A DNA stretch of 64,000 nt from a virus, in IMG/VR virus record IMGVR_UViG_3300049049_000237, positions 80,003 through 144,002 of that record; one strand, given 5' to 3'. The position numbers were made by a program, and so were the translations under genes. Shown piece by piece: positions 751 to 49,648 of this stretch. Every line of letters begins with the position of its first letter. Position 1 is the first letter of the stretch. A model generated the notes under the pieces. That model saw only the letters and a program-made list of their open reading frames with translations. It did no database searches and was not told where the DNA came from.

Positions 751-765
751 CCTATAAAGATAATG
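751..765 (+). promoter_or_regulatory. Variant of the putative phage promoter (CCTATAAAGATAATG)
   Basis: Two mismatches to CCTATCAG-NANN-RYG; directly after a terminator and before the GGAGG RBS of 784. Confidence 0.5.
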
Positions 766-783
766 TTGAAGGAGGGTGAGTAC

Positions 784-1287
784 ATGACGACGATCGACGC
801 TCGACACATCAACGGTGAGTTCGTGTTCCGGCTCTGGTCGCGGATCGCGGGCGGCTACGCGACCACCGACATGAACGAGGAGGACCTTCGTCGCGCTGTG
901 CGCGTGGGGTACTTGCAAGGGGCCTACTCCACGTACCAGCGCGAGATCGAGCAGCGGATCACGCGGGCCAAGGAGTGCGGCACGTCCGAGTACGGCGAGC
1001 CGCCCGGCATCAACGCCGAGTGGCGCGAGGACATGCTCGACAACGGCGAAGACGACAAGGAGGAAGCGGACGAGGAGCCCAACCTCGATGGGATGGACTT
1101 CCTCGTCGGAGGCTACCCGATTCACACCTCGCAGCTCGATGCCCGCACCCTGAAGGAGGCGAACATCTTCATGGGGGACGAGTGGGACACGTTCGTCCGG
1201 TGGGCCGAGCTCTCGACGTTCGGCGAGGTGTTCAAGCTGAACAGCATCTACGTCGTTCGCATCCTGCCCAACGGAGGAAAGCTGTGA
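784..1287 (+). CDS. Hypothetical protein
   Basis: GGAGG RBS, ATG 784, acidic internal linker. Confidence 0.8.
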   Translation: MTTIDARHINGEFVFRLWSRIAGGYATTDMNEEDLRRAVRVGYLQGAYSTYQREIEQRITRAKECGTSEYGEPPGINAEWREDMLDNGEDDKEEADEEPNLDGMDFLVGGYPIHTSQLDARTLKEANIFMGDEWDTFVRWAELSTFGEVFKLNSIYVVRILPNGGKL

Positions 1288-1601
1288 AGTCCATCATCTA
1301 CGCGCGCATCAGCGACAACGTCCTCGACCCCGAGGATTGGCCGGTGAGGCGGCTGCTCATCGAAGGGGAGAAGATCGTCGACCACTCCGAGATGCCCATG
1401 ACCGGCCTCCCTCTCTGCTCGTTCGAGAACGGGCCGCAGGCCGGATGGACGCTCGAACAGCTCCTCGCCTGGTCCTCGGTGGACAACACCGGTACGTACC
1501 CGGAGGTCTGCCACGACCTGAAGGCCGAGGGCGACCTCCACTACGACTACATCAACAAGCGCTCCACGCTCGACGCACTCATCGAGCGTGGCGTTCGCTG
1601 A
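1284..1601 (+). CDS. Hypothetical protein
   Basis: GTGA overlap with the upstream stop, GGAGG RBS; begins MKSIIYARISD. Confidence 0.75.
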   Translation: MKSIIYARISDNVLDPEDWPVRRLLIEGEKIVDHSEMPMTGLPLCSFENGPQAGWTLEQLLAWSSVDNTGTYPEVCHDLKAEGDLHYDYINKRSTLDALIERGVR

Positions 1602-1626
1602 GCCACAACCCAACAGGAACAAGAAC

Positions 1627-2157
1627 ATGATCAAGTTCGACGAGAACGGGCAGCTCGACATCAGTCTCCGTGGCACGCTCACCATCAAGGGCGGGACGTT
1701 CACGTTCATCCCGGACAAGGAGCAGCCGGCGAACAAGAAGGGGAAGAAGCCGAAGACGAAGCTCGTTCGTCCGAGCATGGTCCCGGCCCTGACCTCGGGC
1801 AGGATGGTGATGCCTCCGATGGACCCGGTGCGGAACTGGTTCCCGACTGCCGGCACGCGTCCGTGGTGGCAGCAGATGCCCGAGCGGTCGATGTACGAGG
1901 ACTTCATCGTGAAGCTCCATGCGCTGAGTCTGGACTTCAACGAGCTGCGGCACCTGAAGATCATCAAGGGCATCCTCGACGCGCTCCACATCCCCGACCT
2001 GCCGAAGTACATCGCGCCGCAGGATCGACTCTTCGCGTTCGCGCAGGTGCTCGCGAATGCGAACCAGCGGCCCATCGGCAAGGTGGTCCTGGGAGCGTCC
2101 ACCTTGCAGGAGATTCACTTCTGGCTCGGTAGGCATCTGATCGGCTACGCGGTCTGA
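1627..2157 (+). CDS. Hypothetical protein
   Basis: AGGA RBS, ATG 1627, followed by a terminator. Confidence 0.75.
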   Translation: MIKFDENGQLDISLRGTLTIKGGTFTFIPDKEQPANKKGKKPKTKLVRPSMVPALTSGRMVMPPMDPVRNWFPTAGTRPWWQQMPERSMYEDFIVKLHALSLDFNELRHLKIIKGILDALHIPDLPKYIAPQDRLFAFAQVLANANQRPIGKVVLGASTLQEIHFWLGRHLIGYAV

Positions 2158-2164
2158 ACGACGA

Positions 2165-2192
2165 AGCCCCGGGAGCTCGCGCTCCCGGGGCT
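2165..2192. terminator. Hairpin terminator between convergent blocks
   Basis: 12-bp stem AGCCCCGGGAGC-TCGC-GCTCCCGGGGCT. Confidence 0.7.
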
Positions 2193-20460: not shown

Positions 20461-20463
20461 GAC

Positions 20464-21129
20464 TCAGGGCTGGGGCTGGCCGCCGCCGCGCTGCTTGTGC
20501 TGGCGGACCCAGCTCAGCACCTGCGATCGACGAGCGCCGCGCGACTGGTGGAGCTTGCCCTGGGTGTCCTTGAGCTGACCCTGCGATTCCTGAAGCTGCC
20601 CCTGGAGCCCCTTCACGACGTCCTTCGACGCCGCGCCCTGGACGTCGAGAAGGTACTTCGTGATCTGGTCGCCGGCCGAGGGACCGCCGTACCCGCCGCG
20701 GTTCGACTGAACGAGCTTCTGTGCCGCGTCGAACATGCCGGAGTGCGGCCGATTCGGCGTGTGCATCGAGAGCTGGTTCGCGACGAAGCTGCCCGCCACG
20801 ACGGGGTCCTGCGCGAAGTCCGGATTCATCCGGTAGAGCGTGTTGAAGTAGCGCTGGACCGTGACCGCATCGCCTCCCTGGAGGTGCGGGTTCACGTCGA
20901 GCATGTCCTTGAACGCCCGACCCTTGCTCGCCGCGTCACGGACCTTCTGCACCGCAGCGATGCCGAGGTCGATCGCCTTCCCCACGACGAGCGGCGCCGC
21001 CATGAGCGCCGCCTGCTGTGGGAGCGAGAGACCCGGCGAGCTGGGCGACTGGATGGGGCCCATCAGGTTCGCGGTCTTCGACGCGATCTTCGTGTACGCC
21101 GAGGCCGCCGGGTGCTTCGAGACCTGCAT
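20464..21129 (-). CDS. Putative virion protein
   Basis: N-terminal TKIASKTA, hydrophobic helix, C-terminal coiled coil. Confidence 0.7.
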   Translation of the reverse strand: MQVSKHPAASAYTKIASKTANLMGPIQSPSSPGLSLPQQAALMAAPLVVGKAIDLGIAAVQKVRDAASKGRAFKDMLDVNPHLQGGDAVTVQRYFNTLYRMNPDFAQDPVVAGSFVANQLSMHTPNRPHSGMFDAAQKLVQSNRGGYGGPSAGDQITKYLLDVQGAASKDVVKGLQGQLQESQGQLKDTQGKLHQSRGARRSQVLSWVRQHKQRGGGQPQP

Positions 21130-21455
21130 CAGTACCCTCCGTAATCGCCGGGTCGGGTGCCGAAGTCAGACGGGACGAGTGCGTTTCCGAGAACGCCGCC
21201 TGCCGCACCGACCTGCTGACCCAGCCAGGCCTTCGCCTTACGGGTCGGAGCGTACTGGTTCGCCGCGTAGTTGGCGAGAAGGACCGGAGCCACGTAGCCG
21301 GCTGCCCGGCCCGCGGTCTCCGATCCCAGCTCTCTCCCGATCGATCCGCCGAGGCTCGCGGACGCGTCGAAGACGCTGCCGACCCCCTTCCCGACGGTCT
21401 TAGCCGCCTGGGCGAGGCCAGCGACCTTCAGCGCTGTGATCGGGCTCTTCTTCAT
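21129..21455 (-). CDS. Small Gly/Ala-rich virion protein
   Basis: ATGA overlap, GGAGG RBS; begins MKKSPITALKVAG. Confidence 0.65.
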   Translation of the reverse strand: MKKSPITALKVAGLAQAAKTVGKGVGSVFDASASLGGSIGRELGSETAGRAAGYVAPVLLANYAANQYAPTRKAKAWLGQQVGAAGGVLGNALVPSDFGTRPGDYGGY

Positions 21456-22261: not shown

Positions 22262-22289
22262 CTTGATGTGCTCCCTGTGAGGGGCCGAC

Positions 22290-28103: not shown

Positions 28104-28428
28104 CGAAGAACGACGAGTACTCGCTCTCGTAGCCGGCGGTGACGTTCGACACGTCGAAGCACTGCGGGATCGCGCGGTCGAGTCTCTTGTTGAGCTCGTA
28201 GCTGTAGTCCCAGTCCTCCGAGATCTTCCCCGACGCATCGAGCGGCGGGAACAGGTGGATGACCAGCGCGCCGTCCGTGAGGCGGATGCCCCAGTCCGCG
28301 ATGAAGTGAGCTCGCGGCTCGGCCTCGCGGTTCGGGACGTCTTCCTGGAGCCCACGCACCTCGGAGAGGGTGAAGTCCGACGGCCTGGGGTCCTTCGGAT
28401 CGTGGGGTACGCCGATCTTGCGGGTCAT
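28018..28428 (-). CDS. Hypothetical protein
   Basis: GGAGG RBS, ATGA overlap; begins MTRKIGVPHD. Confidence 0.7.
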   Translation of the reverse strand: MTRKIGVPHDPKDPRPSDFTLSEVRGLQEDVPNREAEPRAHFIADWGIRLTDGALVIHLFPPLDASGKISEDWDYSYELNKRLDRAIPQCFDVSNVTAGYESEYSSFFVIVGGGALSLDPRLVVKRFLDAIEAPLH

Positions 28429-31390: not shown

Positions 31391-31397
31391 GCGTCTC

Positions 31398-31406
31398 ATC
31401 CTACCA
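31398..31406 (-). promoter_or_regulatory. Extended -10 TGGTAGGAT, leaderless arrangement
   Basis: -10 ends 7 nt before ATG 31390; no clear RBS. Confidence 0.5.
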
Positions 31407-31418
31407 TCGGAGGTTGCG

Positions 31419-32519
31419 TTACGGCGACAGCTTGACCTTCGTCGACAGCAGCGTCGGCGGAGGCGGAGGCGCACCCGCTGCTGTCGCGAGTGACGTGAGA
31501 TACGTGAGCAGCGTCTCGCCGCACACGCCGCTCATCGAGGCGTCTGGACCGCCGACGAGTACCTGCGGCGCGTCGATCACGGCCTTCGATGAGCTCTTGA
31601 GGGACGCTTCCTGCGTGCCCTCCATGACGGCCTTGCCGGAAGCCTTGTGCAGGATGTCCCCGTCGGCCTCGATCGTGTGGTTGCCGCTCACGGTGAGCGA
31701 ATGGTCGGCGCCGATGAACTCGGTCTTCTTGCCGCTCATCTCGACCATGAGCGAGTAGGTCTCGCTGCTGACGTCGCCCGTGTCCCGGTCGATGCCTGCC
31801 TGCGCGACCTTCACCTCCCAGACGACCTTCTCGTTGCCGTCGGGTCCGCGCAGCGGGAAGTGCCGTACACGAAGCGACGCCTTCTCGTCCTGCGCGAACT
31901 CGTTCAGATGGAAGACGTACGTGGCAGGGGCATCCCCGCTCGGGTCGTTCTCCTGCCGCTCGACGGTCATCCGGATGTCTCCGGCGAACGTGTCGAGCGA
32001 GTAGTTCTCGCAGAAGTCCTTGATGAAGTTCCCGATCGGCAGGCAGATGCGCTGCGCGATCTCCGTGGCACCGAGCTGGAGGATGCCACCGCGACGCAGG
32101 ATGATGAAGTTCTCATCCCGGCCCATGATGAACATGTCGCCGGGCTGGATGTCAGGTCGGTTCCCGCGGAACGAGACGTCCGTCTGGCTGCCACCCTCGG
32201 GCGTGCTTCGCAGCGGCTCCCCAGTGTCCGACTGCACGACGGTGGGGGTCAGCAGGAAGCCGAGGATGAAGGGCGGCGAGGTGTCGTTCGCTCGCCCCAC
32301 CATGCACACGGCGCCGACTTCTGGCAGCAGCGAGAAGCCCTCGCCGTTGTAGTTGTGGACGTACGGCGACAGGATCTGGAGGTCCTCGTACCGCTTCGAG
32401 GTGGTCTCGGTGATGACCGAGACCGTGTAGTTCCTCTTGTTGACGTCGACCACCGTCGCCTGCTCGCAGACGAAGGGGAAGAACGTCGAAGTCGACGGGC
32501 CGTTGCCGGTGTATCCCAT
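31419..32519 (-). CDS. Baseplate central spike (gp5/gpV-like)
   Basis: N-terminal OB fold (LLPEVGAVCMV...FILGF), beta-repeat C-terminus, terminal LLSTKVK. Confidence 0.7.
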   Translation of the reverse strand: MGYTGNGPSTSTFFPFVCEQATVVDVNKRNYTVSVITETTSKRYEDLQILSPYVHNYNGEGFSLLPEVGAVCMVGRANDTSPPFILGFLLTPTVVQSDTGEPLRSTPEGGSQTDVSFRGNRPDIQPGDMFIMGRDENFIILRRGGILQLGATEIAQRICLPIGNFIKDFCENYSLDTFAGDIRMTVERQENDPSGDAPATYVFHLNEFAQDEKASLRVRHFPLRGPDGNEKVVWEVKVAQAGIDRDTGDVSSETYSLMVEMSGKKTEFIGADHSLTVSGNHTIEADGDILHKASGKAVMEGTQEASLKSSSKAVIDAPQVLVGGPDASMSGVCGETLLTYLTSLATAAGAPPPPPTLLSTKVKLSP

Positions 32520-35500
32520 CAGTAACCTGCCGGACCCTGACCGTGCCCGAACTCTCGCGCGTACGCCAGACCCGGGATCGGGTGCAGGCCGTGGATGTCG
32601 GACTTCTCGCCGTGGGTCGCGGCGGTGATGAGATGCTGCTGGAGGTTGTTCGTCATGAGCCGCGCGATCCAGTCCTTCTGACGACGCGCGGTCGTGGTCT
32701 GCGTCGGCTCCAGGAACGGCTTCACCTGGATCGGACGCTTGCCCTTGAGCGTCGTCCGGTTGACCTCGTCGACGACCGACTTCTGAAGGTGGTCACCGCG
32801 AAGGATCGACGGGTGGTCTCCGGGGTCGACGACCTGCACGGTGCTCGTCGCGTTGCGCACCGTGAGCTCGACGTGACGACGAAGGACGTCCTCCTTCTCG
32901 TAGATCTTGCCGATGCGATCGACCATGAAGTCCTGCGCCGCTTCGATGCCGCGGGTCTTCAGGAGATCGCGCAGGTTCGGATCACCCTCGGTGAGCTGCT
33001 CGCCGCGCTGGAACGTGTAGCCCGGCTTGATGTGCGACTTCGGCGCGTGGCGCGCGTAGAGGGGGACGCGGCTCGTGTCGTAGTAGATCTTGAAGCCGCC
33101 CTGCGGCTGCGGCTCGATGCGCGTGACCTTGCCCTGCTTCGGGGCGACGATCGCGTCCTTCGCAGGCGACTTCTGCGCGACGCCGTACAGACCCTTCACG
33201 GTGTCGAACTCGTCGACCGCGCCGCGCTGGATCGGGACGATGCCCTGGTTGTGCGTCTGCTTGAGCATGAGCTGCGACGCACGTTCGCCGATCGCTTGCG
33301 CAGCGATGATGCCGACGTTGTCGCCGATCGCGTAGTTCGTGCCGCTCGGGTGCTTGCCCATGCAGGTCGAGCAGATGCCGTGGGGCATCCGGCACTTGAG
33401 CGGGGAGCGCACGAAGACGTGCGAGACGCCACCCTTGGAGAGGCTGCTCTGGATCTCGGGCGTGATGATCGTGCCGGCGGGCAGCGACTTGCCCGCGATC
33501 GTCACCGGCGACGCGAGGTACCGATCCACGAGGTCGCGATCGGCCGAGCTCAGGCTGATGCCCTGCTGCGTACCGCAGTCGTGTGACGTGATCGGCGAGT
33601 CGATGTTCGCCTGGATGAGCTCCTTCGTGAGCGTGCCGGGCTCGCGGACTGCGTCGGTCTTCTGGATGACGCCGCGACGCGCACCCGAGGACTGGAGGAA
33701 GTACCCACCGATGTCGATGCCCTCGGAGAACGAACGCGTGATCGGGATCTTCGACGGACGACCGAGATGATCCTCGACCAGCATCGGAGCGATCACGAGC
33801 CCCTGGAACTGCTCGCGCTTCGCCTTGATGCCCGACTGCGCCATGTCCGAGACGTTCGTCGGGTTCTCCTTGTGCTTCTCGCTGTAGATCTTGTGGAGGT
33901 TGCGCGTCGCATCCATCCAGATCTTCGTGCGTGCCTCGTCCGTATCCGCCTTGGCCGCGAGCCGCTTCGCCTCGGCGACGATCTTCTGCCGCTCTGCACG
34001 GAAGGGTTCGAGGTCCGAGAGACGCACGGTGTGTCCGCTCTCGAAGGCCATCTTGAACCCGAGCTGCGTGATGCCCTGCGTCAGAGCACCGAAGTGACCC
34101 GGCTCGGTCCGCGCCGTGTCGCGCAGCATCTCGCTGACGAACTTCTTCGTCACCGGCGTCTGGAGGTCGGTGAGGATCTTGTCCTTGTACTTCGCAGGCA
34201 CCATCGACGCGATGCGTGCGCGGCCGAGCGTCGTGCGCTTGCCCGCGATCGTCACGACGTCGTCGAGGCTCACCTTGTTGCCGAGGAACGCCTTCTCGGC
34301 ATCTTCCTTCGTCGAGAAGGTGTGGGACGTCTGCTTCTTCGGCAGCGACATGCGGTAGAGAGCGAGCAGCGCCTCGTTCGTCGGGGTGAAGAGGACCTCG
34401 CCCGTGCTCGCCGACAGCGAGCGATTCGACGGCAGGAGCTTCTTCGCTTCCTCGACCGCGCCGTGGCTGAGCGGGAGCATGAGCGCGACCGCGTCGCCGT
34501 CGATGTCGCCGCCGATCGGCGGGAGCACGAGAGGGCTCACCTTGATCGCGCGGCTGTCGGTGAGCTTCACCTTCTGCCCGATGATGCCGTACTGGTGGAG
34601 CACCGGATCGCGCTTCATCAGCACGGGGCGGTGCTCGATCTCCTGCTGAAGCATCGCCTCGGCGGTCGGCGTGCGCTGCGAGATCTCCTTCTGGGCGTCG
34701 AACGGGTTCATGCCCATCTGCGTCAGCCGGTGCGCGACCAGCGGGCGGAAGAGCTCGAACGCGATCTTCTTCGGCACGCCGATCTCGTCGGCCCCGAGCC
34801 CGGGGTCGGCGACGATCGTCGCTCGCGCCGTGTAGTCCTGCTTCTTGCCGATGATGCGGTCCTGAAAGAACCCGTCCTTCGGCATGTCGCCCGCGATCGT
34901 GTGGAGCACACCGGGCAGGTGGCGACCCTTGACCTCCTTGCCCTGGAAGTCGATGTCGAGCGCCTTCTTCCCCTTCGGCGTTGTGCCGATGAGGTTCTGC
35001 ATCTCCTGGAAGAGGTCACCCTGCGTCTTGAGCAGTCGCTTGTGCGGGATGCCTTCCTTCTTCGACTGCTCCAGCGAGGTGTTCACCATGCCCAGCCGTC
35101 GGTAGAGCTGGTTCATGGGATCGATGCGGTCCTGCCCGTCCGCGCTCTCCTGGAAGGGGCGGTAGATCGGCGGGAGCACCGGCAGGTACTTCAGCGTGTA
35201 CGCCTCCGCCGGGGTCTTGCCCTGCTCCTTGAGCGTCGAGAGCGCCTTGTACGTGAACGTCGCCCGGTTCAGGTCCGCACCCTTGAGCTTCGGGTCGTCC
35301 ATTTGGGTGCGGAGCTTCTTGAGCTCCTTGTCGATGTCGATCTTGGCGAGTGCCTCGCGGATCGCCTGCCCGCCCGACTTGCCGTTGATCGCGAGCTCGC
35401 CCGAGATGACCTTGTGCAGTAGCTGCGCTTCGTTCGCACGCTTCGCGTCCCCACCCTTGATGTTGAGCAGGTTCACGACCGCCTTCGCGAACACGGGGTT

Positions 35501-38500
35501 CGGCATCGGCTCGGCGAGCTCGATGTAGCCCCAGTTCTGCTTGTCGGTGCCGAAGATGCGGGTGTCGAAGATGCCGCCGGACTCCGGCTTCATGTTCTTC
35601 GCCATCACCGTCGCCGCGGGGTTCGTCACCTTCGCGTGCTTGCCGGCCTTCGCGAGCACCTCAGCATCCGTCATCGGCATGATCTGGATGCCGTTGCCGC
35701 GCTTCTGCGTGTTGAGCCCCGCAGAGTGCAGCATTGCGTTGAACTTCTCGTAGACGAACGGCACCTGCGGCGGCGGCAGCGGCTTGCCGTTCGCCAGCGC
35801 ATCCCAGAGAGCTTCCGCCTGCGGCTTGTCCGACTTCAGCGTCTGCATCTCGCCGAGGTTCTGACGAAGCCCCGCCGCGAGCGCGCCGTACACACCGAGC
35901 GATCCGAGACTCTGCGCGCCCGTCTCGCCACCGCCTCGCGGAACAAGGTTGGTGTCGTACTGGATCATCGGCGCGTAGTCCTTCAGGTAGAACCCGCCGT
36001 GACGCACGTGCGTCTTCTTGTCGATCTGGTGTTCGAGCTGGAAGACGTAGTGGGGCCCGACCGTGACGTCGCCGATCGTGCGACCCGTCTTCGGATCGAT
36101 GAGCGTCTCCGTCTCCTTCAGGCCGTGCTTCTTGAGCTCGTTCTGGACCTTCTTTAGGTAGTCGGTCTGTCCGTCGAAGTTCTTGACGAAGTACGGCTTG
36201 CCCGTCTTCTCGGCGATCTTGCCCGCGGCCGTCTCCAGAATCTGGCCGGGGTTCATGCGGCCGGGCACCGAGACCGGGTTGATGAGCATCTCGACGTGCT
36301 CCTTCTTCCCGCCCTTCTCGGCAAACGGCATCTCGTGGTCCGGCACGACCTGCGTGACGATGCCCTTCGCGCTGTGACGCGTGGAGACCTTCGAGCCCAC
36401 GACGAGCGGCTCGGACGTCTTCACGTGCACGACGATGTTCTTGCCCGCACGAACGACGCGCACGATCTCACCCGGGTACGGGTGGTCCCACGTCATCGCG
36501 GCGTTGCTGTACCCGATGCGCCCCTTCTTCGTGAGCTGCGCGAGCATCTTCGCGTCGAGCGAGTCGGGGTCCTTCTGCTCGCGGAGCGCGAGCACGAGAG
36601 GGTCTCCCGGCTGCACCTTGGTGCCCGGCTTGATGAGGCCATCGTCACCGATGTTCGCGAGCTGCGTCTGCGCGTACGCGTTGAGCTTGTCGTCGAGGAA
36701 GCGCTTCTTGCTGATGACGTGGTCGGACGTCACGTAGAAGGACGGCTTGAGCAAGTGCTCCGTGCCGAGCTTCTTCGCCGCGCTCTCCGAGAGGACGATG
36801 CCGTCCTCGTGGTTGGCGCCGTTGGCGAGGTAGGCGACGCGCACGTTCGTCCCGAGCGCGAGCGCACCGTCCTTCGAGAACGAGTGGTCCGCGAGGACCT
36901 GTCCTGCACGCACCGTGTCCCCGACCTTCACGGTCGGGGTGCTGTGGAGCATCGCCTTCTTGTCGTTCAGCGGGTAGTGGTCGTAGAGGTGGACCGACCG
37001 CTCCTTGCCGTCCTTGCCGACGACGATGATCTCGTCGTTCTTGATGGACTTGATGTGCCCGTCGATCGGCGACTTGTGCGAGAGGAACGTCTGCCCGATG
37101 CGCTGCTCGAAAGAGATGCCCGGGGCCGCCTCGACCTGCACACGCGGGGGTTCGCGGCCGACCACGCTGAGTGCCTGAGCCATGTGACGCGCCGACATCG
37201 TCGTGCGTCCCGCCGCGTCGTTCTGCATGAACGGGACGAGGTTCGTCTCGGTGGAGAAGACCTGCCCCGGCGTGATGAGGGTGTACTCCGCCTGCGAGAA
37301 CGGGAGCTCTTCGATCTCGCCGTTCTTGTTCGAGACGCGCACCTGGGGACCGAGCGGCTTGGGCTTGCCGCCCTCCCATCGGATCTGGTCGGGCAGGACG
37401 ACAATGGCTCGCGCAGCTTCTGCCGGCGTGAGCTCTTCGACCTTCCCCTTCTTGATGTTGTACAGACGCGCGTACGGCTTGCGGTCCTTGACCGTGATGC
37501 CGCTCGTCAGGTGGAGTGAGGTGCCTGCTCCGGAGCCCTCGGGCGTGAACACCGGATCGAGGAAGCCGAGGTGCGACGGGTCGACGGACGTGTTCGACAG
37601 CGTCACCTGATGCTCGGACTTCAGACCACCGGGGCCCATGATGGTCGTGTGGCTGCGATCGGCGAGCATCGTGACGAGGTTCGTCTGCTTCGAGTTGCTC
37701 GCGAGCGCCGTGGCGAAGACGTGGTTGATCGGCTTCTGGATGAGGTCGGGCATCACGATGTCGCGAAGCACCGACGCATTCCCTGCGCGCAGCGACTCCA
37801 TCGTCGACTTCTTGCCCAGGGACTTCAGCACGCGGCCGTGGATCTCGTTCTTCGAGGCCTTGAGGCGCTCGGCGAAGTGATCGGTCGGCGTCCAGAGCTC
37901 CTTGAACTCCAGCGAGTCGATCGGGTCCGGATGCGCTCGCTGCGCGCTCACGTCGATAAGCTTCGCGCTCGCCTTCATCAGGGCGGGACCTGAGACGGAC
38001 TCGAAGGCGTGACCCAGCGTGGTCTTCGTGACCACCGGGTCCATCTTCGTCTCCGACAGGTACTTGTTGATGGCCTGCGGCAGGTCGAGGGTGCTCGGGA
38101 CCTGCTGAGCATCCTTCATCGCCGTGTAGAAGGACTTGAGGTCGTGCTCGTAGCGCGACTTCTTCTGATTCGAGGCGAAGTTCTTCTCGCCCCACGAGGC
38201 CTTCATCTCGTCGTCGCTGACGCCCGCGGCCTTCAGCACCGAGTAGAGCGGGATCTTCCGCGCGCCGCTCTTGATGAACATGTAGCCCGTGCCGGGCTCC
38301 ATCTGGAGATCGAAGCTCTTGCCCTTCGCGAGCTGGAACTGCGCCTCGTACTCGCCCTTCTTCTCGGTCGCCTTGACGTAGGCACCGGGACGGAGACGCC
38401 ACTGGTTCGTGACGGTCTTCTCCTGCCCGCCGATGATGAAGCTGTGGTGGCGTGTGAGCTTGGGGATCTCCGCCACGCGGGTCCTCTTGCTCACGAGCAC

Positions 38501-38746
38501 CTTGCCGTCGCGATCGACCACGTCGACGTGACCGAAGACTGGAGCCGTGTACGAGCGCCCGTTCAGACGCGCGTCCATCTGGCCCTTGATGTCCTCGGTT
38601 CCGAGGTCTTCACCGCCGACCTCCAGGTTTCGCACCCGCACCTCGATGCCGGTCTTCGGATCGACGATGGGGAAGGTGCCGTTGATCTCCGCCAGGAGGC
38701 GGGTCTTCAGCTCCTCGAACTGCTTGTTCGGGTCGGTGGTGAGCAC
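32519..38746 (-). CDS. rpoBC: DNA-directed RNA polymerase, fused beta and beta-prime subunits
   Basis: Beta motifs TPEG, NHEDGIV, KVSTRHSAKG, PGRMNPGQILE; beta-prime motifs PVLPPIYRP, GKKQDYTAR, RDPVLH, GGDIDGD, AAQAIGE. Confidence 0.95.
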   Translation of the reverse strand: MLTTDPNKQFEELKTRLLAEINGTFPIVDPKTGIEVRVRNLEVGGEDLGTEDIKGQMDARLNGRSYTAPVFGHVDVVDRDGKVLVSKRTRVAEIPKLTRHHSFIIGGQEKTVTNQWRLRPGAYVKATEKKGEYEAQFQLAKGKSFDLQMEPGTGYMFIKSGARKIPLYSVLKAAGVSDDEMKASWGEKNFASNQKKSRYEHDLKSFYTAMKDAQQVPSTLDLPQAINKYLSETKMDPVVTKTTLGHAFESVSGPALMKASAKLIDVSAQRAHPDPIDSLEFKELWTPTDHFAERLKASKNEIHGRVLKSLGKKSTMESLRAGNASVLRDIVMPDLIQKPINHVFATALASNSKQTNLVTMLADRSHTTIMGPGGLKSEHQVTLSNTSVDPSHLGFLDPVFTPEGSGAGTSLHLTSGITVKDRKPYARLYNIKKGKVEELTPAEAARAIVVLPDQIRWEGGKPKPLGPQVRVSNKNGEIEELPFSQAEYTLITPGQVFSTETNLVPFMQNDAAGRTTMSARHMAQALSVVGREPPRVQVEAAPGISFEQRIGQTFLSHKSPIDGHIKSIKNDEIIVVGKDGKERSVHLYDHYPLNDKKAMLHSTPTVKVGDTVRAGQVLADHSFSKDGALALGTNVRVAYLANGANHEDGIVLSESAAKKLGTEHLLKPSFYVTSDHVISKKRFLDDKLNAYAQTQLANIGDDGLIKPGTKVQPGDPLVLALREQKDPDSLDAKMLAQLTKKGRIGYSNAAMTWDHPYPGEIVRVVRAGKNIVVHVKTSEPLVVGSKVSTRHSAKGIVTQVVPDHEMPFAEKGGKKEHVEMLINPVSVPGRMNPGQILETAAGKIAEKTGKPYFVKNFDGQTDYLKKVQNELKKHGLKETETLIDPKTGRTIGDVTVGPHYVFQLEHQIDKKTHVRHGGFYLKDYAPMIQYDTNLVPRGGGETGAQSLGSLGVYGALAAGLRQNLGEMQTLKSDKPQAEALWDALANGKPLPPPQVPFVYEKFNAMLHSAGLNTQKRGNGIQIMPMTDAEVLAKAGKHAKVTNPAATVMAKNMKPESGGIFDTRIFGTDKQNWGYIELAEPMPNPVFAKAVVNLLNIKGGDAKRANEAQLLHKVISGELAINGKSGGQAIREALAKIDIDKELKKLRTQMDDPKLKGADLNRATFTYKALSTLKEQGKTPAEAYTLKYLPVLPPIYRPFQESADGQDRIDPMNQLYRRLGMVNTSLEQSKKEGIPHKRLLKTQGDLFQEMQNLIGTTPKGKKALDIDFQGKEVKGRHLPGVLHTIAGDMPKDGFFQDRIIGKKQDYTARATIVADPGLGADEIGVPKKIAFELFRPLVAHRLTQMGMNPFDAQKEISQRTPTAEAMLQQEIEHRPVLMKRDPVLHQYGIIGQKVKLTDSRAIKVSPLVLPPIGGDIDGDAVALMLPLSHGAVEEAKKLLPSNRSLSASTGEVLFTPTNEALLALYRMSLPKKQTSHTFSTKEDAEKAFLGNKVSLDDVVTIAGKRTTLGRARIASMVPAKYKDKILTDLQTPVTKKFVSEMLRDTARTEPGHFGALTQGITQLGFKMAFESGHTVRLSDLEPFRAERQKIVAEAKRLAAKADTDEARTKIWMDATRNLHKIYSEKHKENPTNVSDMAQSGIKAKREQFQGLVIAPMLVEDHLGRPSKIPITRSFSEGIDIGGYFLQSSGARRGVIQKTDAVREPGTLTKELIQANIDSPITSHDCGTQQGISLSSADRDLVDRYLASPVTIAGKSLPAGTIITPEIQSSLSKGGVSHVFVRSPLKCRMPHGICSTCMGKHPSGTNYAIGDNVGIIAAQAIGERASQLMLKQTHNQGIVPIQRGAVDEFDTVKGLYGVAQKSPAKDAIVAPKQGKVTRIEPQPQGGFKIYYDTSRVPLYARHAPKSHIKPGYTFQRGEQLTEGDPNLRDLLKTRGIEAAQDFMVDRIGKIYEKEDVLRRHVELTVRNATSTVQVVDPGDHPSILRGDHLQKSVVDEVNRTTLKGKRPIQVKPFLEPTQTTTARRQKDWIARLMTNNLQQHLITAATHGEKSDIHGLHPIPGLAYAREFGHGQGPAGY

Positions 38747-38752
38747 GCCCGC

Positions 38753-38782
38753 AGTCTACTGCTCGCGCGACGAAGGGGTCAA
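38753..38782 (-). promoter_or_regulatory. Sigma70-like promoter TTGACC-N18-TAGACT, leaderless
   Basis: -10 ends 6 nt before GTG 38746; no RBS. Confidence 0.7.
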
Positions 38783-38812
38783 CGAACCGAGCCGAAACGC
38801 AGGGGTTACTGA

Positions 38813-38827
38813 CCTATCAGAAACGTG
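38813..38827 (+). promoter_or_regulatory. Putative phage promoter CCTATCAGAAACGTG
   Basis: Exact core at a divergent junction, before the GGAGG RBS. Confidence 0.7.
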
Positions 38828-38835
38828 GAGGCGCC

Positions 38836-38994
38836 ATGCCCGATCACGAGCACCAGGACGACCCCACGTACTTCGAGCGCATCGACACGCTCACGCAGTT
38901 CGACGACTTCGTCGCCGACGTCATCAACGCCAACATGTTCCCGCCCGCACACCAGGAGGAGTACGAAGACGATGCTGAATCTTCTGCTGGTTAG
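38836..38994 (+). CDS. Small acidic protein (52 aa)
   Basis: Not in the ORF track; GGAGG RBS; begins MPDHEHQDDPTYFERID. Confidence 0.65.
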   Translation: MPDHEHQDDPTYFERIDTLTQFDDFVADVINANMFPPAHQEEYEDDAESSAG

Positions 38995-39085
38995 CATCGC
39001 CGCCGGCTTCCTGATCGGTGTGTCCCACCACCTCTACTACGTCCTCGGGAGGCTGAGCGATGCGACCCGCAACGTTCGCGCATGA
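38972..39085 (+). CDS. Small membrane protein (37 aa)
   Basis: AGGAGG upstream; MLNLLLVSIAAGFLIGVSHHLYYVLG. Confidence 0.5.
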   Translation: MLNLLLVSIAAGFLIGVSHHLYYVLGRLSDATRNVRA

Positions 39086-39506
39086 CCACGATCACGAGAC
39101 GCCCGACTGTGCCGAGTGCCGCGAGCCGGTCGGCGTGATGCAAGACGCCACCGTGATGCTGAGTGGTCAGTTCTTCTACAACCGCGAAGAGCAGTGCGCC
39201 TTCTTCGTGCTCGACCCCGACAGCGAGCTCGCCATCGTCGAGATCCAGGACGCCCTCGGTAGCGGCAAGCCGCAGCTCGCCATCGTCCTGAACAAGGACA
39301 ACCTCGGCCCGGTGCGCGTGGTGCACGAGGAGTGCCTCGGCGACTTCGACCCCGATGGGGCGAGTGACGAGGACGACGAAGACGATGATGACGAGATCGA
39401 GATTGGTCTCGATCCGGAAGACCCCGACTACCACGACATGAAGATGGCGATCGAGCGTGATCGCAGCGAGTGGGACGAGAACGACCTGCTCCACAGGAGA
39501 CGCTGA
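39060..39506 (+). CDS. Acidic protein with CxxC...HxxC zinc motif
   Basis: GGAGG RBS; CAEC and HEEC; Asp/Glu-rich tail. Confidence 0.7.
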   Translation: MRPATFAHDHDHETPDCAECREPVGVMQDATVMLSGQFFYNREEQCAFFVLDPDSELAIVEIQDALGSGKPQLAIVLNKDNLGPVRVVHEECLGDFDPDGASDEDDEDDDDEIEIGLDPEDPDYHDMKMAIERDRSEWDENDLLHRRR

Positions 39507-39511
39507 AGAAG

Positions 39512-40618
39512 ATGCCCAAGTACTCGGAAGCGCAGCGCCAGGCCGTCCAGGAGCTGACGGTTCAGTGGGAGAGTGGCTACTTGTCGATCCCCGCCCTGCT
39601 CGGGCCGGTGGGGATCGGCAAGACCGACATGGCACAAGAGCTCGCCATCGAGATGAGCTCGAAGATGGACGACTCGCTCATCTTCGAGCCCATCGCCACC
39701 GGTGAGGCCTCGGACCCGACGGACACGTCGGGCATCCCGTGGGTCATCACGGTCGACGACCCGAACGGAGAAGCGACCAAGAAGGACTACCGCGTCCTCT
39801 GGGCGCTGAATCGCGCGGCGTACCAAGCGTGCCGCATGCCCACGCTTCTTCTTTTCGATGACATCGACAAGGCGACCAACATCGTCGTCAACTCGCTGCT
39901 CAACCTCTTCGTGCACCGCCGCTTCAAGGACTTCGCGCTGCACCCGAAGAGCCTGATGATGACCGCGGGCAACCGCACGCAGGACGACATCCACGCGAAC
40001 CGGCTGTCGGAGTCGCTGCGCACCCGCATGACGATCATCGAGGTCGAGGCCGACTTCGAGGACTTCGCCAACTACGCGAAGAAGACCGGCAACATCCACG
40101 ACCACCTCATCGGGTTCCTGACGGCCCGCCCGGAGCTCCTGCACAAGCACGAGGAGAACGTCTACCGGTTCCCGACGCCCCGTGGGTACCGCGAAGCCTC
40201 GCTTCACATGTGGAAGTACCCGGAGTCCGACTGGCCCGACATCGTCGAGCGCAAGCTCGGCAAGCCGGTGCGCAACGACTTCGTCGCCTGGCACAAGATC
40301 CTGTCGAAGGTCGACGTCGAGCACATCCTTCGCGTCGGCTACGTGAAGGACATGCCCACGGACATCGTCGGCAAGAAGATGATGGAGTTCGCCGCCATCT
40401 TCGCGCTCACGATGCACCTCAACAAGAAGGACGGTGTTCAGCCTGGGTGGGCGGGCTTCGACCCGTACATCGACAGCCTGAAGGACTCGCCGGAGATGAA
40501 GATTGCGTTCCTTCTCCAGCTCACGGAGAAGGCGCGCTCTGCCGTGCGCCAACTGTACCCGACCGCCGCCGGCAAGATCATGGCGACGGTCATCGCAGAC
40601 GAGGCGGCCGGGCCGTGA
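39512..40618 (+). CDS. MoxR-like AAA+ ATPase
   Basis: GPVGIGKT, LLLFDDID, TAGN, LRTR, FPTPR. Confidence 0.85.
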   Translation: MPKYSEAQRQAVQELTVQWESGYLSIPALLGPVGIGKTDMAQELAIEMSSKMDDSLIFEPIATGEASDPTDTSGIPWVITVDDPNGEATKKDYRVLWALNRAAYQACRMPTLLLFDDIDKATNIVVNSLLNLFVHRRFKDFALHPKSLMMTAGNRTQDDIHANRLSESLRTRMTIIEVEADFEDFANYAKKTGNIHDHLIGFLTARPELLHKHEENVYRFPTPRGYREASLHMWKYPESDWPDIVERKLGKPVRNDFVAWHKILSKVDVEHILRVGYVKDMPTDIVGKKMMEFAAIFALTMHLNKKDGVQPGWAGFDPYIDSLKDSPEMKIAFLLQLTEKARSAVRQLYPTAAGKIMATVIADEAAGP

Positions 40619-41835
40619 TCATCCAGGAGAAGAACCAGGACCTCTACAACCGACGGATGACGAAGGCTGCGACGGCCCTCGTCATCCGCCACCCGTTCTT
40701 CGGGTATCTCCTTTTCGGTAGCTCCGTGAAGGTCGTCGCGCGAGCGATTCCCACGATGGCTACCGACGGGCGCTCGATCTACTGCGGGATCGACTTCGTC
40801 AGCAAGGAGCCGATCGAGATCTTGGAGTTCGGTCTGCTGCACGAGCTGCTGCACATCTACTTCAACCATCACGCGCGACGTGGCTCTCGTGACGCGAAGG
40901 TGTGGAACATCGCCGTCGACATCTTCACGAACGAGCAGTGCTCCCTGCTCCTCTCGCACGACAACGGGAACACGCGCTGGCCGATACCGGCACGCTTCAT
41001 CCAGCCGGCAGAATGGGCGCTGGGCAAGTCGTGCGAGGAGATCTACGACATCTTGATGAAGGCGGAGCAGGACGAGCCTGACGTCCTGAAGAAGCTCCAG
41101 CCTGCGGAAGACGAGCTTGGCAGCGGCAGCGACATGATCCCGATGCCCGAGCCGCTTCCTCGGGGCGTGGATCCGCTCGACCCGCAGGGCTCGAAGGACT
41201 GGCAGGGCTCCTTCCAGCAAGACGTCGCGAGTGCCCGCGCGATGGCCGACAAGACCGTCGTCACGAAGCGCCTGCTGACGGATGCAGTGCGCGATCGGAT
41301 GGCGAAGATCCTCAAGTCCACACTGCCTTGGGGATCGATCCTGCGGGGCGACCTGTCGTACGACCTCGGGTGGGATGAGGCGACGTACTGTCCCCCGAAG
41401 ACGAAGTACTACCCGATCATCCTCCCGCAGACGCGGTCGACCAAGGAGCGAGTCCTGCTCCTGGGCATCGACATCAGCACGAGCGTCACGGACGACCTCA
41501 TCCAGATCTTCATCTCGAATGTGATGTCGGCTGCGATGAAGGCCACCAAGACGGTGGTCGTGACGTTCGACCAGTTCCAGCGCGACTACTACGAGACCAC
41601 CAACCCGAAGACCATCTTCGAGCACGTCAAGTTCAAGTCGGGAGCGCACTACAAGACTTCGGCGATGTGCGTCTTCGAGCACGCAGATCGCCTGAAGCCG
41701 AGCGCCATCTGTCTGCTCACCGATGGGCACATCGAAGTGCCTGAGACCGCATACAAGAACACGACCTTCGTGATTCCCACCGGCGGGGCCCACCTGCCGT
41801 GGGGCCGGCACATCGTGATGGAGTACCAATGGTAG
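40615..41835 (+). CDS. HExxH metallopeptidase plus vWA domain protein (DUF2201-like)
   Basis: TMATDG, HELLH, WNIAVD, IDISTSV (MIDAS-like), LTDG. Confidence 0.8.
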   Translation: MIIQEKNQDLYNRRMTKAATALVIRHPFFGYLLFGSSVKVVARAIPTMATDGRSIYCGIDFVSKEPIEILEFGLLHELLHIYFNHHARRGSRDAKVWNIAVDIFTNEQCSLLLSHDNGNTRWPIPARFIQPAEWALGKSCEEIYDILMKAEQDEPDVLKKLQPAEDELGSGSDMIPMPEPLPRGVDPLDPQGSKDWQGSFQQDVASARAMADKTVVTKRLLTDAVRDRMAKILKSTLPWGSILRGDLSYDLGWDEATYCPPKTKYYPIILPQTRSTKERVLLLGIDISTSVTDDLIQIFISNVMSAAMKATKTVVVTFDQFQRDYYETTNPKTIFEHVKFKSGAHYKTSAMCVFEHADRLKPSAICLLTDGHIEVPETAYKNTTFVIPTGGAHLPWGRHIVMEYQW

Positions 41836-43250
41836 AGATGATGTCTGTGTACGCGTCCCTCGCGCACGCGGTGATGAACGAGCAGCTTCGTCCGGTCTTG
41901 GAGCGGTCGTGGTCCGCGTCCTCCGACGTGACCGGAACGAAGGGCAAGGCGTGGCGCATCGCGCTCTGCGCCTACGGCAAGGACGTGTACACGCTCGGGT
42001 CTCGGATGGGGATTCCGACGAAGAACAGCGTCGGCGGGCACGGGTACTCCGTGTTCACGTGCCCGCGCATCCTCACGCTCGGCATCTCCCCGCTGGAGGT
42101 CTACGGGTACAAGACGATCACGCACTCGACGACCGCCTACACGCCCATCCACCTCGCGACGGCGCTTCTTCGCTTCGCCCCGAGCGAGTACCGCTCGATG
42201 GCCGAGGAGCTCCTACAGCCGGCGTTCCTTCGCAAGTACGCGAAGCACCAGGAGCCGGACGTCGTGTCCATGCGGCTCAACCCGTACGTGCCCGAGGAGC
42301 TCGGACTTCCGTTCAAGCACCTCCCCATCGAGCCCGGCGAGTACATCGACGAGGTCGGGAACCTCGCCTGGTTCACGCCCGAGTACGCGCACAAGTACTT
42401 CGAGCACAAGCTGCGCGAGGGCTTCGTGCGCCTCACGCAGCTCAACCTCGTCCATCGCATGTGGGGCTCGCTCGTCGAATCCGGCGCAGCCGCCGTGCTG
42501 GCGCACGCGAAAGACCGTGAGCTCAGCGACTACCCGCTGCTCACGTTGCGGCTGCGCATGGCGAGTAAGCACAGCGCAGAGAACTTCCTCAACAAGCTCA
42601 CCGGCGTCCGCGGGGTGCTGAACATCGTCCGCGATGACCTGTCCGAGTACCGGATGAAGAAGGGTCTCTCCATCCTCGCGACGACCGGCACCGCTCCCGT
42701 CCGTGCGATGTTCAAGTTCATCGGACGCAAGCTGACGATGGACGACCTGCGTGAGCTGACCCCGCGGCAAGCGCTGGAGATCTGCTTCTACGCACCCCTC
42801 GGGGCCATCGAAGACCTACGCCCGCGAGCAGAAGAACTCGGTGCGATGTTCTTCGGGATCAAGGACCTCCCGATGGGGAAGATCCAGAACGTGGTCTCTG
42901 ATCACGTGCACCGCGCCAAGGAGTGGTACCCGTGCAGCGACGCGGGTATCGCGAGGCAGATGAGCACGAAGACGATCGCTGACGCGAAGTCGGAGTGGGA
43001 CGACACGTACCGTCCCCTCACGCACGAGTTCGTGGAGGCCTACACGTGGCGGAACGACCTCCTCGAAGCGGTCGATCCGGACACGGCGTTCCTCGGGATG
43101 ATGTACGAACTCACCACGGAGGAAGAGTCCGTACCGCGCATCGCGATCGACAACCTGCTCCGCACGCACTCGAACTACGCCAGGCTGAAGGACATCCTCG
43201 CCCGTATGCCTCTTCATCTGCGTAGGATCGGGGGGCTCGACAGAACGTGA
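41829..43250 (+). CDS. Hypothetical protein
   Basis: Long ORF with phage-like codon usage, coupled to the vWA gene, followed by a terminator. Confidence 0.75.
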   Translation: MVEMMSVYASLAHAVMNEQLRPVLERSWSASSDVTGTKGKAWRIALCAYGKDVYTLGSRMGIPTKNSVGGHGYSVFTCPRILTLGISPLEVYGYKTITHSTTAYTPIHLATALLRFAPSEYRSMAEELLQPAFLRKYAKHQEPDVVSMRLNPYVPEELGLPFKHLPIEPGEYIDEVGNLAWFTPEYAHKYFEHKLREGFVRLTQLNLVHRMWGSLVESGAAAVLAHAKDRELSDYPLLTLRLRMASKHSAENFLNKLTGVRGVLNIVRDDLSEYRMKKGLSILATTGTAPVRAMFKFIGRKLTMDDLRELTPRQALEICFYAPLGAIEDLRPRAEELGAMFFGIKDLPMGKIQNVVSDHVHRAKEWYPCSDAGIARQMSTKTIADAKSEWDDTYRPLTHEFVEAYTWRNDLLEAVDPDTAFLGMMYELTTEEESVPRIAIDNLLRTHSNYARLKDILARMPLHLRRIGGLDRT

Positions 43251-47637: not shown

Positions 47638-48941
47638 CGCTGGTAGCTGTCGGAGGCGAGACGCGCCAGGACGACCTTCTGCGGATCGGGCATCGAGGAG
47701 AAGACCGCGATCGGGTCCTTCTGGAAGCTCTTCCGCACGTCCTCACCGAACGCCTGCTGGACGAGCTGCCACTGGGTGGACGCGAGGTTCTTCAGCATCT
47801 CGTCGCTGACGTAGTCGTTGCCCTCCGACCACGACCAGCTCTCGTTCTTGGCGTACTTGCCGAACGTCGCCTGGAACGGATCGCGGAAGCCGAGGGGCCG
47901 GTTGTAGTAGGCGTTCGCTCCCGTGTGCTGGTCGAGCTCCGCGAGCATCTCGACCATCACGGAGGGCGGGGTGCTCGCCTTCTTCTCCATCAGCACGTGG
48001 TACGCGTGCTCGTGGCCGGTACCCTCGTAGTTGCGGATGCGCGTGACGAGCTCGCTGTCGATGTGCGGGCCGTACTCGTGACCGGCGTACTTCTGTGTGG
48101 CGCCGCGAACGGGGAGCCCGAGCTCCTCCAGGCGGGCGGCGAGGTTCACCGCGAACTCGCGGCGATCGTCGAGGGAGAACAGCGAGTAGTGGTCGTCGAA
48201 GTAGACCGACGCCTGCTTCACGTGCTCGTACTGATCGAGCGGGTACTTCTCCTGCGAAGGCAGGGCGAAACGCGTGACCACCATCGCGACCTTCTCCTTC
48301 GGGCGGTGCGCGGTGATGTCGCCGCAGTGCTCCCAGCCCGCCTTCTTCATCGCCGACGAGCCTGCCGTGGGCTTCGCGGTGTCCCGGCGGCTCGGCCACG
48401 TCGAGATGCTGCCGGACATCGGCATCATTTCCGTGCCGTTCAGGTCCGCCTTCTTCTGCATGTCGGACGTGAGCCCTGCCTGGGCGAGGCGGAAGCCTTC
48501 CATCGAGGACTTCGCCGCCTGGCTGCCGTGAACCATGCGGTCCTTGGCCGATGCGAGGTGACCCGCTGCGTCGATCACGCCCGAGATGCCCGCCATCTTC
48601 AGCAGGTCTTCGGGCGGCTGGACGTCGTACCACTCGCACGCGCCGACGAGGTTGCGCGCCGCGGTCTTGCGAGCCTGCTCCGGCAGGAGGTGCGATCGCT
48701 CCATGAAGTACATGACCGACGTGGCGAGGTGCCCCGAATCGTGCATCGCGTACTTCCGGACTGTCTCTCCGGCGTTCTGGGCGACGAGCGCGAACATGCG
48801 GTCGGGCAGCCGACCGAGGTCCTCCTGGCTCATCAGCTCCATGTCGAGTGAGGGAGGAAGCTCGGCACCGGCCAGCTTCGTCACGAGAAGCGACGCGTTC
48901 GCGTCGTCGTAGATGTCGAGGATCACGCCCGCGAGATGCAT
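47634..48941 (-). CDS. KxA-rich protein with a duplicated FAL...KY domain
   Basis: Start MHLAGVILD placed by the leaderless promoter; internal repeat. Confidence 0.75.
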   Translation of the reverse strand: MHLAGVILDIYDDANASLLVTKLAGAELPPSLDMELMSQEDLGRLPDRMFALVAQNAGETVRKYAMHDSGHLATSVMYFMERSHLLPEQARKTAARNLVGACEWYDVQPPEDLLKMAGISGVIDAAGHLASAKDRMVHGSQAAKSSMEGFRLAQAGLTSDMQKKADLNGTEMMPMSGSISTWPSRRDTAKPTAGSSAMKKAGWEHCGDITAHRPKEKVAMVVTRFALPSQEKYPLDQYEHVKQASVYFDDHYSLFSLDDRREFAVNLAARLEELGLPVRGATQKYAGHEYGPHIDSELVTRIRNYEGTGHEHAYHVLMEKKASTPPSVMVEMLAELDQHTGANAYYNRPLGFRDPFQATFGKYAKNESWSWSEGNDYVSDEMLKNLASTQWQLVQQAFGEDVRKSFQKDPIAVFSSMPDPQKVVLARLASDSYQR

Positions 48942-48947
48942 GGGCCA

Positions 48948-48977
48948 AGGGTACGGCAGGCACGACAGAACGGTCAA
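48948..48977 (-). promoter_or_regulatory. Sigma70-like promoter TTGACC-N18-TACCCT, leaderless
   Basis: -10 ends 6 nt before ATG 48941; same geometry as the RNAP promoter. Confidence 0.7.
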
Positions 48978-48981
48978 ACGA

Positions 48982-48996
48982 CCTATCAGGAAAATG
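48982..48996 (+). promoter_or_regulatory. Putative phage promoter CCTATCAGGAAAATG
   Basis: Exact core at the head of the replication block. Confidence 0.7.
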
Positions 48997-49015
48997 AACG
49001 CTCTAACGGAGGTTT

Positions 49016-49648
49016 ATGTCCCTCGAACCCGAGGTCGGGAACAATATCGGGCCGACCAACAAGAACATGAACTGCGACTCGTGGGGAACCTACGAATCGC
49101 CCAACTCCTCGCCCACCGCCTCCCTGTGCAACGGCGGTACGCTCGACGGCCATCTGTGGGCCGAGTGCCCTTCGCGCGAGGACTGCCGCAAGGAGCGTAA
49201 CCAGCGAGTGCTCGCAGATGCGCGAGCTCGCTCGGGACGCACGCATCTGCCCACGGTCTCGCCGGCATCGCAGGTACGCTTCGTCGGAGGGCAGACGCAG
49301 CGCCCGTTCTCTGGTACCACCTCTTCTCCCGCAGCAACGACCATCCCCCAGCGCCCGGTGGGGGTACCCGCCCAGATCCACAAGGCCGAATCCGGCAACC
49401 CCTACATCGACACGCCTCGCGTGCTCGCGCCTACGCGGCCGGGCATGCACTCGCCCACGTTCCTGCCGAACAAGAAGGAGCACTGGGCAACCCGCCTCTT
49501 CAAGAACATGGTCCAGGGCGCGTTCAACGCGTTCGGCTGGCACATCCACGACCTCACGCAGCACGTCGACCTCTTCCCCTATCAGGACGACGAGCAGCAC
49601 ATCCTGCCCCCTTCCACGCCTCCCGCGGAGGATAACGAGAAGAGATGA
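49016..49648 (+). CDS. Hypothetical protein, Cys-rich N-terminus and Pro-rich linker
   Basis: GGAGG RBS; four cysteines near the N-terminus. Confidence 0.7.
   Translation: MSLEPEVGNNIGPTNKNMNCDSWGTYESPNSSPTASLCNGGTLDGHLWAECPSREDCRKERNQRVLADARARSGRTHLPTVSPASQVRFVGGQTQRPFSGTTSSPAATTIPQRPVGVPAQIHKAESGNPYIDTPRVLAPTRPGMHSPTFLPNKKEHWATRLFKNMVQGAFNAFGWHIHDLTQHVDLFPYQDDEQHILPPSTPPAEDNEKR

Follow-up and report, generated by a model that had tools for sequence, protein, structure and literature searches.

Reviews describe the jumbo phages that encode their own RNA polymerase (RNAP) as devoid of sigma homologs, and the RNAPs of phiKZ and AR9, which also come without one, are split into four to five pieces (PMC7824862, PMC13282480). 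Virions of the Salmonella phage Arash contain RNAP subunits and a sigma (PMC10585845). Here, we analyze the short word CCTATCAG, which recurs upstream of genes in a 64,000-nucleotide (nt) stretch of viral DNA (the window), i.e., bases 80003-144002 of the 191,681-bp virus record IMGVR_UViG_3300049049_000237 (G000; about 64% G+C). The motif is real, oriented with the genes, placed at the heads of transcription units and conserved in related phages. We consider it reasonably probable that it defines a phage-specific promoter class that is read by a sigma factor of the phage, most likely on the single-chain beta-beta' RNAP that the same genome encodes. Promoter action at the DNA level, the start site, the identity of sigma and core, and the timing of expression are what we infer from sequence.

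Motif abundance, orientation and conservation

The window holds five exact copies of CCTATCAG on the plus strand (at 22782, 25398, 38813, 48982 and 49578, precisely where an earlier note, made from the letters of the window, had placed them) and none on the minus strand. Dinucleotide shuffles of the window yielded 0.63 copies on average and three at most, and 0 of 100 shuffles reached five, where the earlier note had estimated less than one chance copy per strand. A longer pattern, CCTATCAGNANNRYG, fits all five copies without mismatch and a copy at 751 with two mismatches. Across the whole of G000 the word occurs 13 times (seven forward, six reverse) against an order-3 Markov expectation of 0.42, which ranks it in the top three of all 8-mers by over-representation; the reversed control word is absent. 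All 13 copies are co-oriented with the next gene and none is antisense. The plus-strand bias reported by the earlier note thus holds for the window (5/5) and not for the genome; it is a window effect, because the motif tracks gene direction and not strand.

Gene calls for G000 were our own, derived from codon-position G+C. The non-coding share of the genome is only about 10%, yet 10 of the 13 copies are intergenic; the other three are inside the co-oriented gene just upstream, at most 90 nt from its end. Outside the motif, the flanks of the six window sites are unrelated (mean column identity 48%), and a dispersed repeat was therefore rejected as an explanation. Literature searches for CCTATCAG as a phage promoter word turned up only unrelated papers.

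With the RNAP protein as bait, five related virus contigs were retrieved (G001-G005; 55-82% RNAP identity), two of which are complete at about 195 kb. They contain 11, 3, 4, 13 and 3 exact copies of CCTATCAG, respectively, and one of these genomes has four copies of CCTATAAG in addition. Nearly all copies in the relatives are situated 22-90 nt upstream of a co-oriented start. For 17 sites of G000, an ortholog of the gene that follows is present in a relative, and about 12 of these 17 keep a co-oriented site at a similar distance. G005 has no nucleotide-level similarity to G000 by blastn, and the word is still conserved there. A nucleotide search of isolated phages gave no match, and the nearest isolated phages at the protein level have RNAP identities of only 24-31%.

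The positions of the sites relative to genes and terminators mark the heads of transcription units. Eleven of 58 sites (19%) start 0-3 nt after a stable hairpin followed by a T-run, as compared to 5 of 433 gene starts taken as controls; at such a place, transcription has only just been terminated and must be initiated anew. Several sites are found between divergent genes, where their own strand carries no gene upstream. The motif class heads arrays of small genes (18-76 kb), DNA ligase, a GyrB block, an AAA/VWA block, the replication block, a transfer RNA (tRNA) unit and the sigma operon, and long structural runs are mostly free of it. In particular, the top-scoring CCTATCAG site is at the head of the plus-strand tRNA-Asn unit (genome 174225-174594), which is wedged between two minus-strand structural genes. 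The central proposal of the earlier note, a conserved element that is co-oriented with genes at the heads of gene blocks, is supported by these findings in both the genome and its relatives. The tRNA-Asn(GTT) unit also holds a short hydrophobic open reading frame (ORF), an Asn-rich mini-ORF and a terminator-like hairpin.

Candidate promoter sites in the window

All six window sites are on the plus strand. The site at 751-769, CCTATAAAGATAATGTTGA, is a weak variant with two mismatches and a position weight matrix (PWM) score of 9.1. It directly follows the hairpin and T-run of a terminator, at a distance of 33 nt from the ATG of gene 784-1287, and a canonical CCTATCAG stands at the corresponding place before a weak ortholog of this gene (29-30% identity) in G001 and G004. 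The remaining five sites are exact. The copy at 22782-22800, from which the ATG at 22809 is 27 nt away, falls within the last 30 nt of ORF 22528-22812 and heads a block with GyrB (23434-25374); in G002 the site is kept although the adjoining codons change. The nearest cellular relatives of this plus-strand GyrB gene are found in metagenome-assembled genomes of Polyangiales/Myxococcota (55-58% identity in the best segment, versus 46-51% for most other phyla), which may be a weak hint of a myxococcotal host.

The copy at 25398-25416 is intergenic, with a leader of 89 nt up to gene 25487-25939. A hairpin, GAACGG..CCGTTC (25412-25435), begins at motif position 15, and the corresponding sites in relatives read CCTATTAG (G002) and CCTATCAG (G003), with the position of the hairpin unchanged. 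As an observation in its own right, the leader (25412-25486) is more conserved than the protein behind it (43% amino acid (aa) identity with G002); besides the hairpin at its 5' end it contains a conserved CTGGGCCCAGGCATCGAACAAGAACACG stretch, and it may be regulatory.

In the divergent gap beside the RNAP gene, the copy at 38813-38831 lies 23 nt before the ATG at 38836 and heads an AAA ATPase/VWA-metallopeptidase block (39512-43250). When the six genomes are compared, this gap contains only four shared islands amid diverged spacer. Three of them are the GTG start of the RNAP gene, a -10 box (TAGACT, TAAGCT or TAAACT) and a -35 box (TTGACC); the fourth, on the opposite strand, is CCTATCA(G/A), followed by GGAG and ATG. 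The copy at 48982-49000, 34 nt before the ATG at 49016, heads the replication block (helicase, DnaB, primase, PolA, RecA-like). It is positioned back-to-back with a leftward host-type promoter, whose -35 box is 4 nt away, and is kept in all five relatives, 32-40 nt before the ortholog.

The fifth exact copy (49578-49596) lies inside ORF 49016-49648, 67 nt before the helicase ATG, and was regarded as a member site in the earlier note. It encodes Pro-Tyr-Gln; G002 has CCTATGAG at this place, and G001, G003, G004 and G005 lack the word. Because it is codon-encoded and lost in four of the five relatives, this copy is probably due to chance or young, and not functional. The earlier statement that all sites lie within about 75 nt of a start codon is correct for five of the six and fails for 25398, whereas the continuation ATGAACG ascribed to two copies is indeed that of 25398 and 48982.

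Consensus and genome-wide scans

The family consensus is WW-N3-CCTATCAG-nAAGATGAAGG. In the logo of 30 exact family sites, A/T at -4/-3 and CCTATCAG are followed by A10, R11, R13, T14, G15, R16, R17 and G18. Both positions that the earlier note had presented as shared by all copies need some qualification: A at position 10 is present in the window copies and the family logo and in only 11 of the 13 copies in G000, and RYG at 13-15 describes the family (R 28/30, Y 26/30, G 25/30) and is absent from several copies in the genome. The motif core TATCAG, with CC before it, resembles a -10 hexamer (T-A-T-n-A-G).

The motif also emerged from unbiased searches. The top k-mers in gene-oriented upstream regions of G000 and G001 were CTATCA, CCTATCA and CCTATCAG, followed by CTATAA, of which every genomic copy is located upstream of genes (5/5 in G000, 8/8 in G001). 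A PWM was trained on the exact CCTATCAG copies and applied with a cut-off score of >=14.5. It found 25 sites in G000 versus 1.2 in Markov-simulated sequence, and 33 versus 2.9 in G001; roughly half of the sites are exact training words, for which the excess is circular, and the non-exact half, for which it is not, is located at promoter-like places, with cores including CCTATCAA, GCTATCAG, CCTATAAG, CCTATTAG and TCTATCAG. A scan of the full genome and its relatives had been named as a check in the earlier note; it shows the motif to be enriched and mostly intergenic or at gene edges (86 of 98 sites in the six genomes), with only two of the 98 sites antisense. Positions 2-5 and 7 are near-invariant among the 98 sites, and position 8, the equivalent of -7, is G in 82, A in 14, C in 1 and T in 1. 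Among 92 non-identical sites, position 14 is T in 66 and position 15 is G or A in all 92.

Information content is <=0.3 bit everywhere from -45 to -6, i.e., there is no -35 hexamer at the motif sites, and an independent sigma70 scan picked none of the CCTATCAG sites. Words of the type AAA/AAT are most frequent 17-18 nt ahead of the first C of the motif (in 12 of 81 sites, versus about one at other offsets), and a weak upstream A-rich box, GAAAt-N14/15-CC, is found in about one third of the sites. The earlier description of a single-box element unlike sigma70 promoters is accurate in that no TTGACA-like box is present and the sigma70 scan finds nothing, and it is incomplete with regard to the -10-like core and the A-rich box.

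The word AACANGAA was considered as a second promoter word and rejected, as it represents the spacer between ribosome-binding site (RBS) and ATG, or first codons. Together with its extension AACANGAA(C), it is 4-5x over-represented genome-wide, with 105 copies, of which 41 are intergenic (e.g., genome 14898, 28407, 30592, 44560 and 187862). It occurs either between RBS and ATG (GGAACAAGAACATG) or in the first codons (ATGAAC), and looks like a favored translation-start context rich in Asn codons.

RNAP and sigma factor of the phage

The RNAP gene (32519-38746, minus strand) encodes a single-chain beta-beta' protein of 2075 aa with the Pfam domains Rpb2_6 and Rpb1_1/2/5 and NCBIfam matches to rpoC (E 4e-124) and rpoB (E 2e-87). 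The DxDGD motif is invariant in four orthologs, and the fused chain is several hundred residues shorter than the cellular pair. One Rpb1 locus is present in the genome, and this is the sole RNAP gene found; a search for a T7-type RNAP with PF00940 gave no match at E <=1 in the genome, with the control genomes silent too. About 5 kb downstream of the RNAP gene lies the large terminase gene, in the same orientation, and a PHROGs search with ten proteins of the leftward blocks named only the terminase and the head protein. The Arash gene (130093-134670), which is located beside the portal gene, encodes a fusion of beta with the N-terminal half of beta' (matching residues 17-1505 of the protein described here). 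Mass spectrometry of Arash virions showed this fusion protein to be the most abundant one (PMC10585845).

The only sigma found in the genome is a sigma70-family protein of 264 aa (genome 168820-169614, minus strand), whose gene is the second behind a conserved CCTATCAG copy. It matches Sigma70_r3 with 37.1 bits (cut-off 25.3) and r4 weakly, and aligns with SigA from the PDB (E 1.2e-6) over residues 17-259, i.e., regions 2-4; a six-frame search of the genome with the Sigma70_r2 profile did not pick up the gene. The match to the FliA/WhiG model is full-length but weak (E 6.6e-6), far below every family cut-off. Orthologs with 54-56% identity are encoded by G001 and G004. The protein is strongly diverged, with regions 2-4 recognizable. 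In region 2.3 of the PDB alignment, T-G replaces the W-W pair. The sigma retains the residues that we take to read T at -12 (Q437 and T440, E. coli numbering). In region 4.2, aligned by hand, it differs at R584, E585 and R588, which are presumably contacts to the -35 box. These residue changes would fit an altered promoter specificity, as far as can be judged from the alignments.

Host-type leaderless promoters

A second type of promoter-like sequence precedes the RNAP gene. On the minus strand at 38753-38782, TTGACC-N18-TAGACT is located 6 nt before the leaderless GTG; it is the sole sigma70-scan match in 20001-40000, and its boxes and the GTG are conserved in the six genomes. A similar minus-strand element, TTGACC-N18-TACCCT (48948-48977), lies 6 nt before a leaderless ATG with first base 48941, with GGTCAA box, -10 box and ATG again conserved in six genomes. 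The arrangement TTGACC-N17/18-TA(G/T)nCT, followed after 6-7 nt by ATG or GTG, was found at the RNAP gene, the gene at 48941 and three more places, and a -10-only form, TAGSCT-N6-GTG/ATG, at large tail and structural genes. Members of this class, which is conserved in the relatives, have no ribosome-binding sequence before the start codon. Outside the window, sites of this class are located at genome 11477, 75973, 187544, 159773, 163560, 168768, 170629, 174190 and 179838. The genome is thus predicted to have two separate promoter classes, the CCTATCAG class and the host-type leaderless class.

GTAGACT, which had been a candidate for a separate word, was rejected as it is the -10 box of the host-type class. 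Four host-type promoters contain in their spacer a direct repeat of the -10 word, GTATGCTCTC(N1-3)TATGCT (genome 11477 and 187544; G001 10932 and 187655).

Predicted mechanism and alternative explanations

In the mechanism we favor, T-A-T-n-A-G would serve as a -10 element with CC before it and, at about one third of the sites, the weak A-rich box about 15 nt upstream. The reader would be the sigma (168820-169614), mounted on the single-chain beta-beta' RNAP. Since the hexamer-N6-start spacing of the leaderless class fixes the geometry, its application to T3-G8 would place the transcription start at the purine at position 15 (G15), after the pyrimidine at position 14. A start site would be expected where the conserved R-T-G (13-15) is found. 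The RBS begins at or just after position 15, and a hairpin starts exactly there in three orthologous leaders; the mRNA would begin right at the ribosome-binding GAGG/GGAGG. The motif class would drive non-structural genes, with the RNAP and structural genes using the host-type TTGACC-N18-TAnnCT class.

It is tempting to extend this proposal to a closed, host-independent system, in which RNAP and sigma would be packed, injected and read CCTATCAG early, and host RNAP would read the leaderless class. We put this forward tentatively, as something that may well not hold. It would amount to an N4-like division of labor built from sigma-dependent parts, with early and replication genes expressed from the CCTATCAG class and virion genes, including RNAP, from the leaderless class. 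A virion-borne holoenzyme that reads CCTATCAG early is a live possibility by analogy with Arash, which itself is without the motif.

Several points weigh against reading of the motif by the phage sigma on the phage RNAP. According to one review, it is RNAP-less jumbo phages that often encode sigma homologs, which likely join the host RNAP (PMC13282480); judged by gene content, the clade described here has both RNAP and sigma, unlike either group of the reviews. Arash and D69, whose RNAPs are 28-31% identical to that of G000, have no enrichment of CCTATMAG versus the reversed control. The shortest leaders measure 22 nt, so that only 8 nt would remain between a start at G15 and the ATG (genome 169938), and the excess of PWM sites is in part circular, as stated above. 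Furthermore, with the sigma gene located behind its own motif, the first sigma molecules would have to come from elsewhere; they might be carried in the virion, or be made by read-through that starts at the leaderless promoter at genome 170629.

Alternatively, the phage sigma could redirect the host core RNAP to the motif, as SPO1 gp28 and T4 gp55 do, with the beta-beta' protein having another job, e.g., reading the TAnnCT class or acting from the virion. The proposed association of phage sigma homologs with host RNAP (PMC13282480) and the recognizable regions 2-4 of the sigma fit this alternative, as does the finding that no homologs of alpha or omega turned up, albeit no search aimed at them was made. 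However, the phage carries a complete beta-beta' gene with an intact catalytic motif, region 2.2 of the sigma, which binds core, is strongly diverged by our reading of the alignment, and RNAP and sigma together would be redundant if the sigma used the host core; we thus regard recruitment of the host core as rather unlikely. The word might also be the binding site of a phage activator or repressor that acts on overlapping host RNAP promoters, given that it is short, conserved, upstream of genes and back-to-back with host-type promoters at two window junctions. Yet it is non-palindromic and always gene-oriented, and this asymmetry argues against an ordinary dimeric regulator site. In addition, no separate -10/-35 pair fits between the word and a start codon 22-34 nt away, and conservation continues through the predicted start region, which makes a regulator site improbable.

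An action of the word in the RNA, where it would be a site of processing or an operator of translation within 5' leaders, would be in accordance with the location of the motif 22-90 nt before start codons and with its 3' part, which merges with the RBS. However, the 19% of sites found 0-3 nt after a terminator-like hairpin and T-run speak against it, as little RNA would reach a site directly behind a terminator; several sites are moreover located in divergent gaps and one heads a tRNA unit, and we consider such a role very improbable. We give hardly any credence to a chance or compositional word without function. The copy at 49578, which is explained by its codons and not conserved, is probably of this kind, but the excess of the word, its placement at unit heads and its conservation refute such an origin for the motif family, so that it may hold for single copies only.

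If the phage sigma and the single-chain RNAP do read the motif, the three would form a compact transcription system separate from that of the host, and a natural experiment in the retuning of sigma -10 recognition, with G replacing T at -7. The clade combines RNAP, sigma and two cleanly separated putative promoter classes in one genome. The CCTATCAG class is a testable target, with about 25 natural variants per genome, a six-genome alignment and a predicted start base, and permits operon maps and timing classes for uncultured relatives.

Relation to described transcription systems

Late promoters of T4 (TATAAATA at -10, read with gp55) are similar to the CCTATCAG class in having a short, mainly -10-type box without a strong -35 box and a phage sigma-family reader, for which the protein encoded at 168820-169614 is the candidate here; the variant cores CCTATAAG and CCTATAAA look similar to the T4 box. 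T4 gp55 is a truncated sigma that works with the host core, gp33 and the sliding clamp. In contrast, regions 2-4 are present in the sigma described here, a beta-beta' core is encoded by the phage itself, and the genes headed by the class are non-structural and not late ones. With T7, T3 and SP6 it shares promoters of about 20 nt that extend into the start region, about 20 gene-oriented repeats, and a polymerase gene behind a host-type promoter, but those phages have single-subunit RNAPs, whereas this one has the cellular beta-beta' type and a sigma. The T4 late and T7 schemes are the nearest functional analogs, and both belong to other families. The non-virion RNAPs of phiKZ and AR9 are alike in reading short motifs near starts with a phage-encoded multisubunit-type enzyme. 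The present locus falls outside their type, with beta and beta' fused and a sigma70-family gene present.

Promoters of the sigma28/FliA/WhiG type have the form TAAA-N15-GCCGATAA. Of the seven positions of CCGATAA, CCTATAA matches 6 and CCTATCA matches 5, about one third of the sites have an A-rich box some 15 nt upstream, and the sigma aligns weakly with the FliA/WhiG model. However, the match is partial, the upstream box is weak, the sigma is far below the family cut-offs, and the G-to-T change relative to the FliA consensus falls on a key base; the likeness would thus be a resemblance only. Housekeeping sigma70/sigma-A promoters share with the motif the near-invariant T at -12 and A at -11 and the hexamer-N6-purine spacing, which is also that of the leaderless class. 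They differ in having a -35 hexamer 16-19 nt upstream and TAnnnT with T at -7, whereas the motif sites lack a -35 box, have G or A in place of T at the -7 equivalent with hardly an exception, and are not picked by the sigma70 scan. Features of a phage-specific promoter class, by comparison, are found here: the motif is over-represented, co-oriented with genes, located at the heads of units and conserved before orthologous genes amid diverged flanks.

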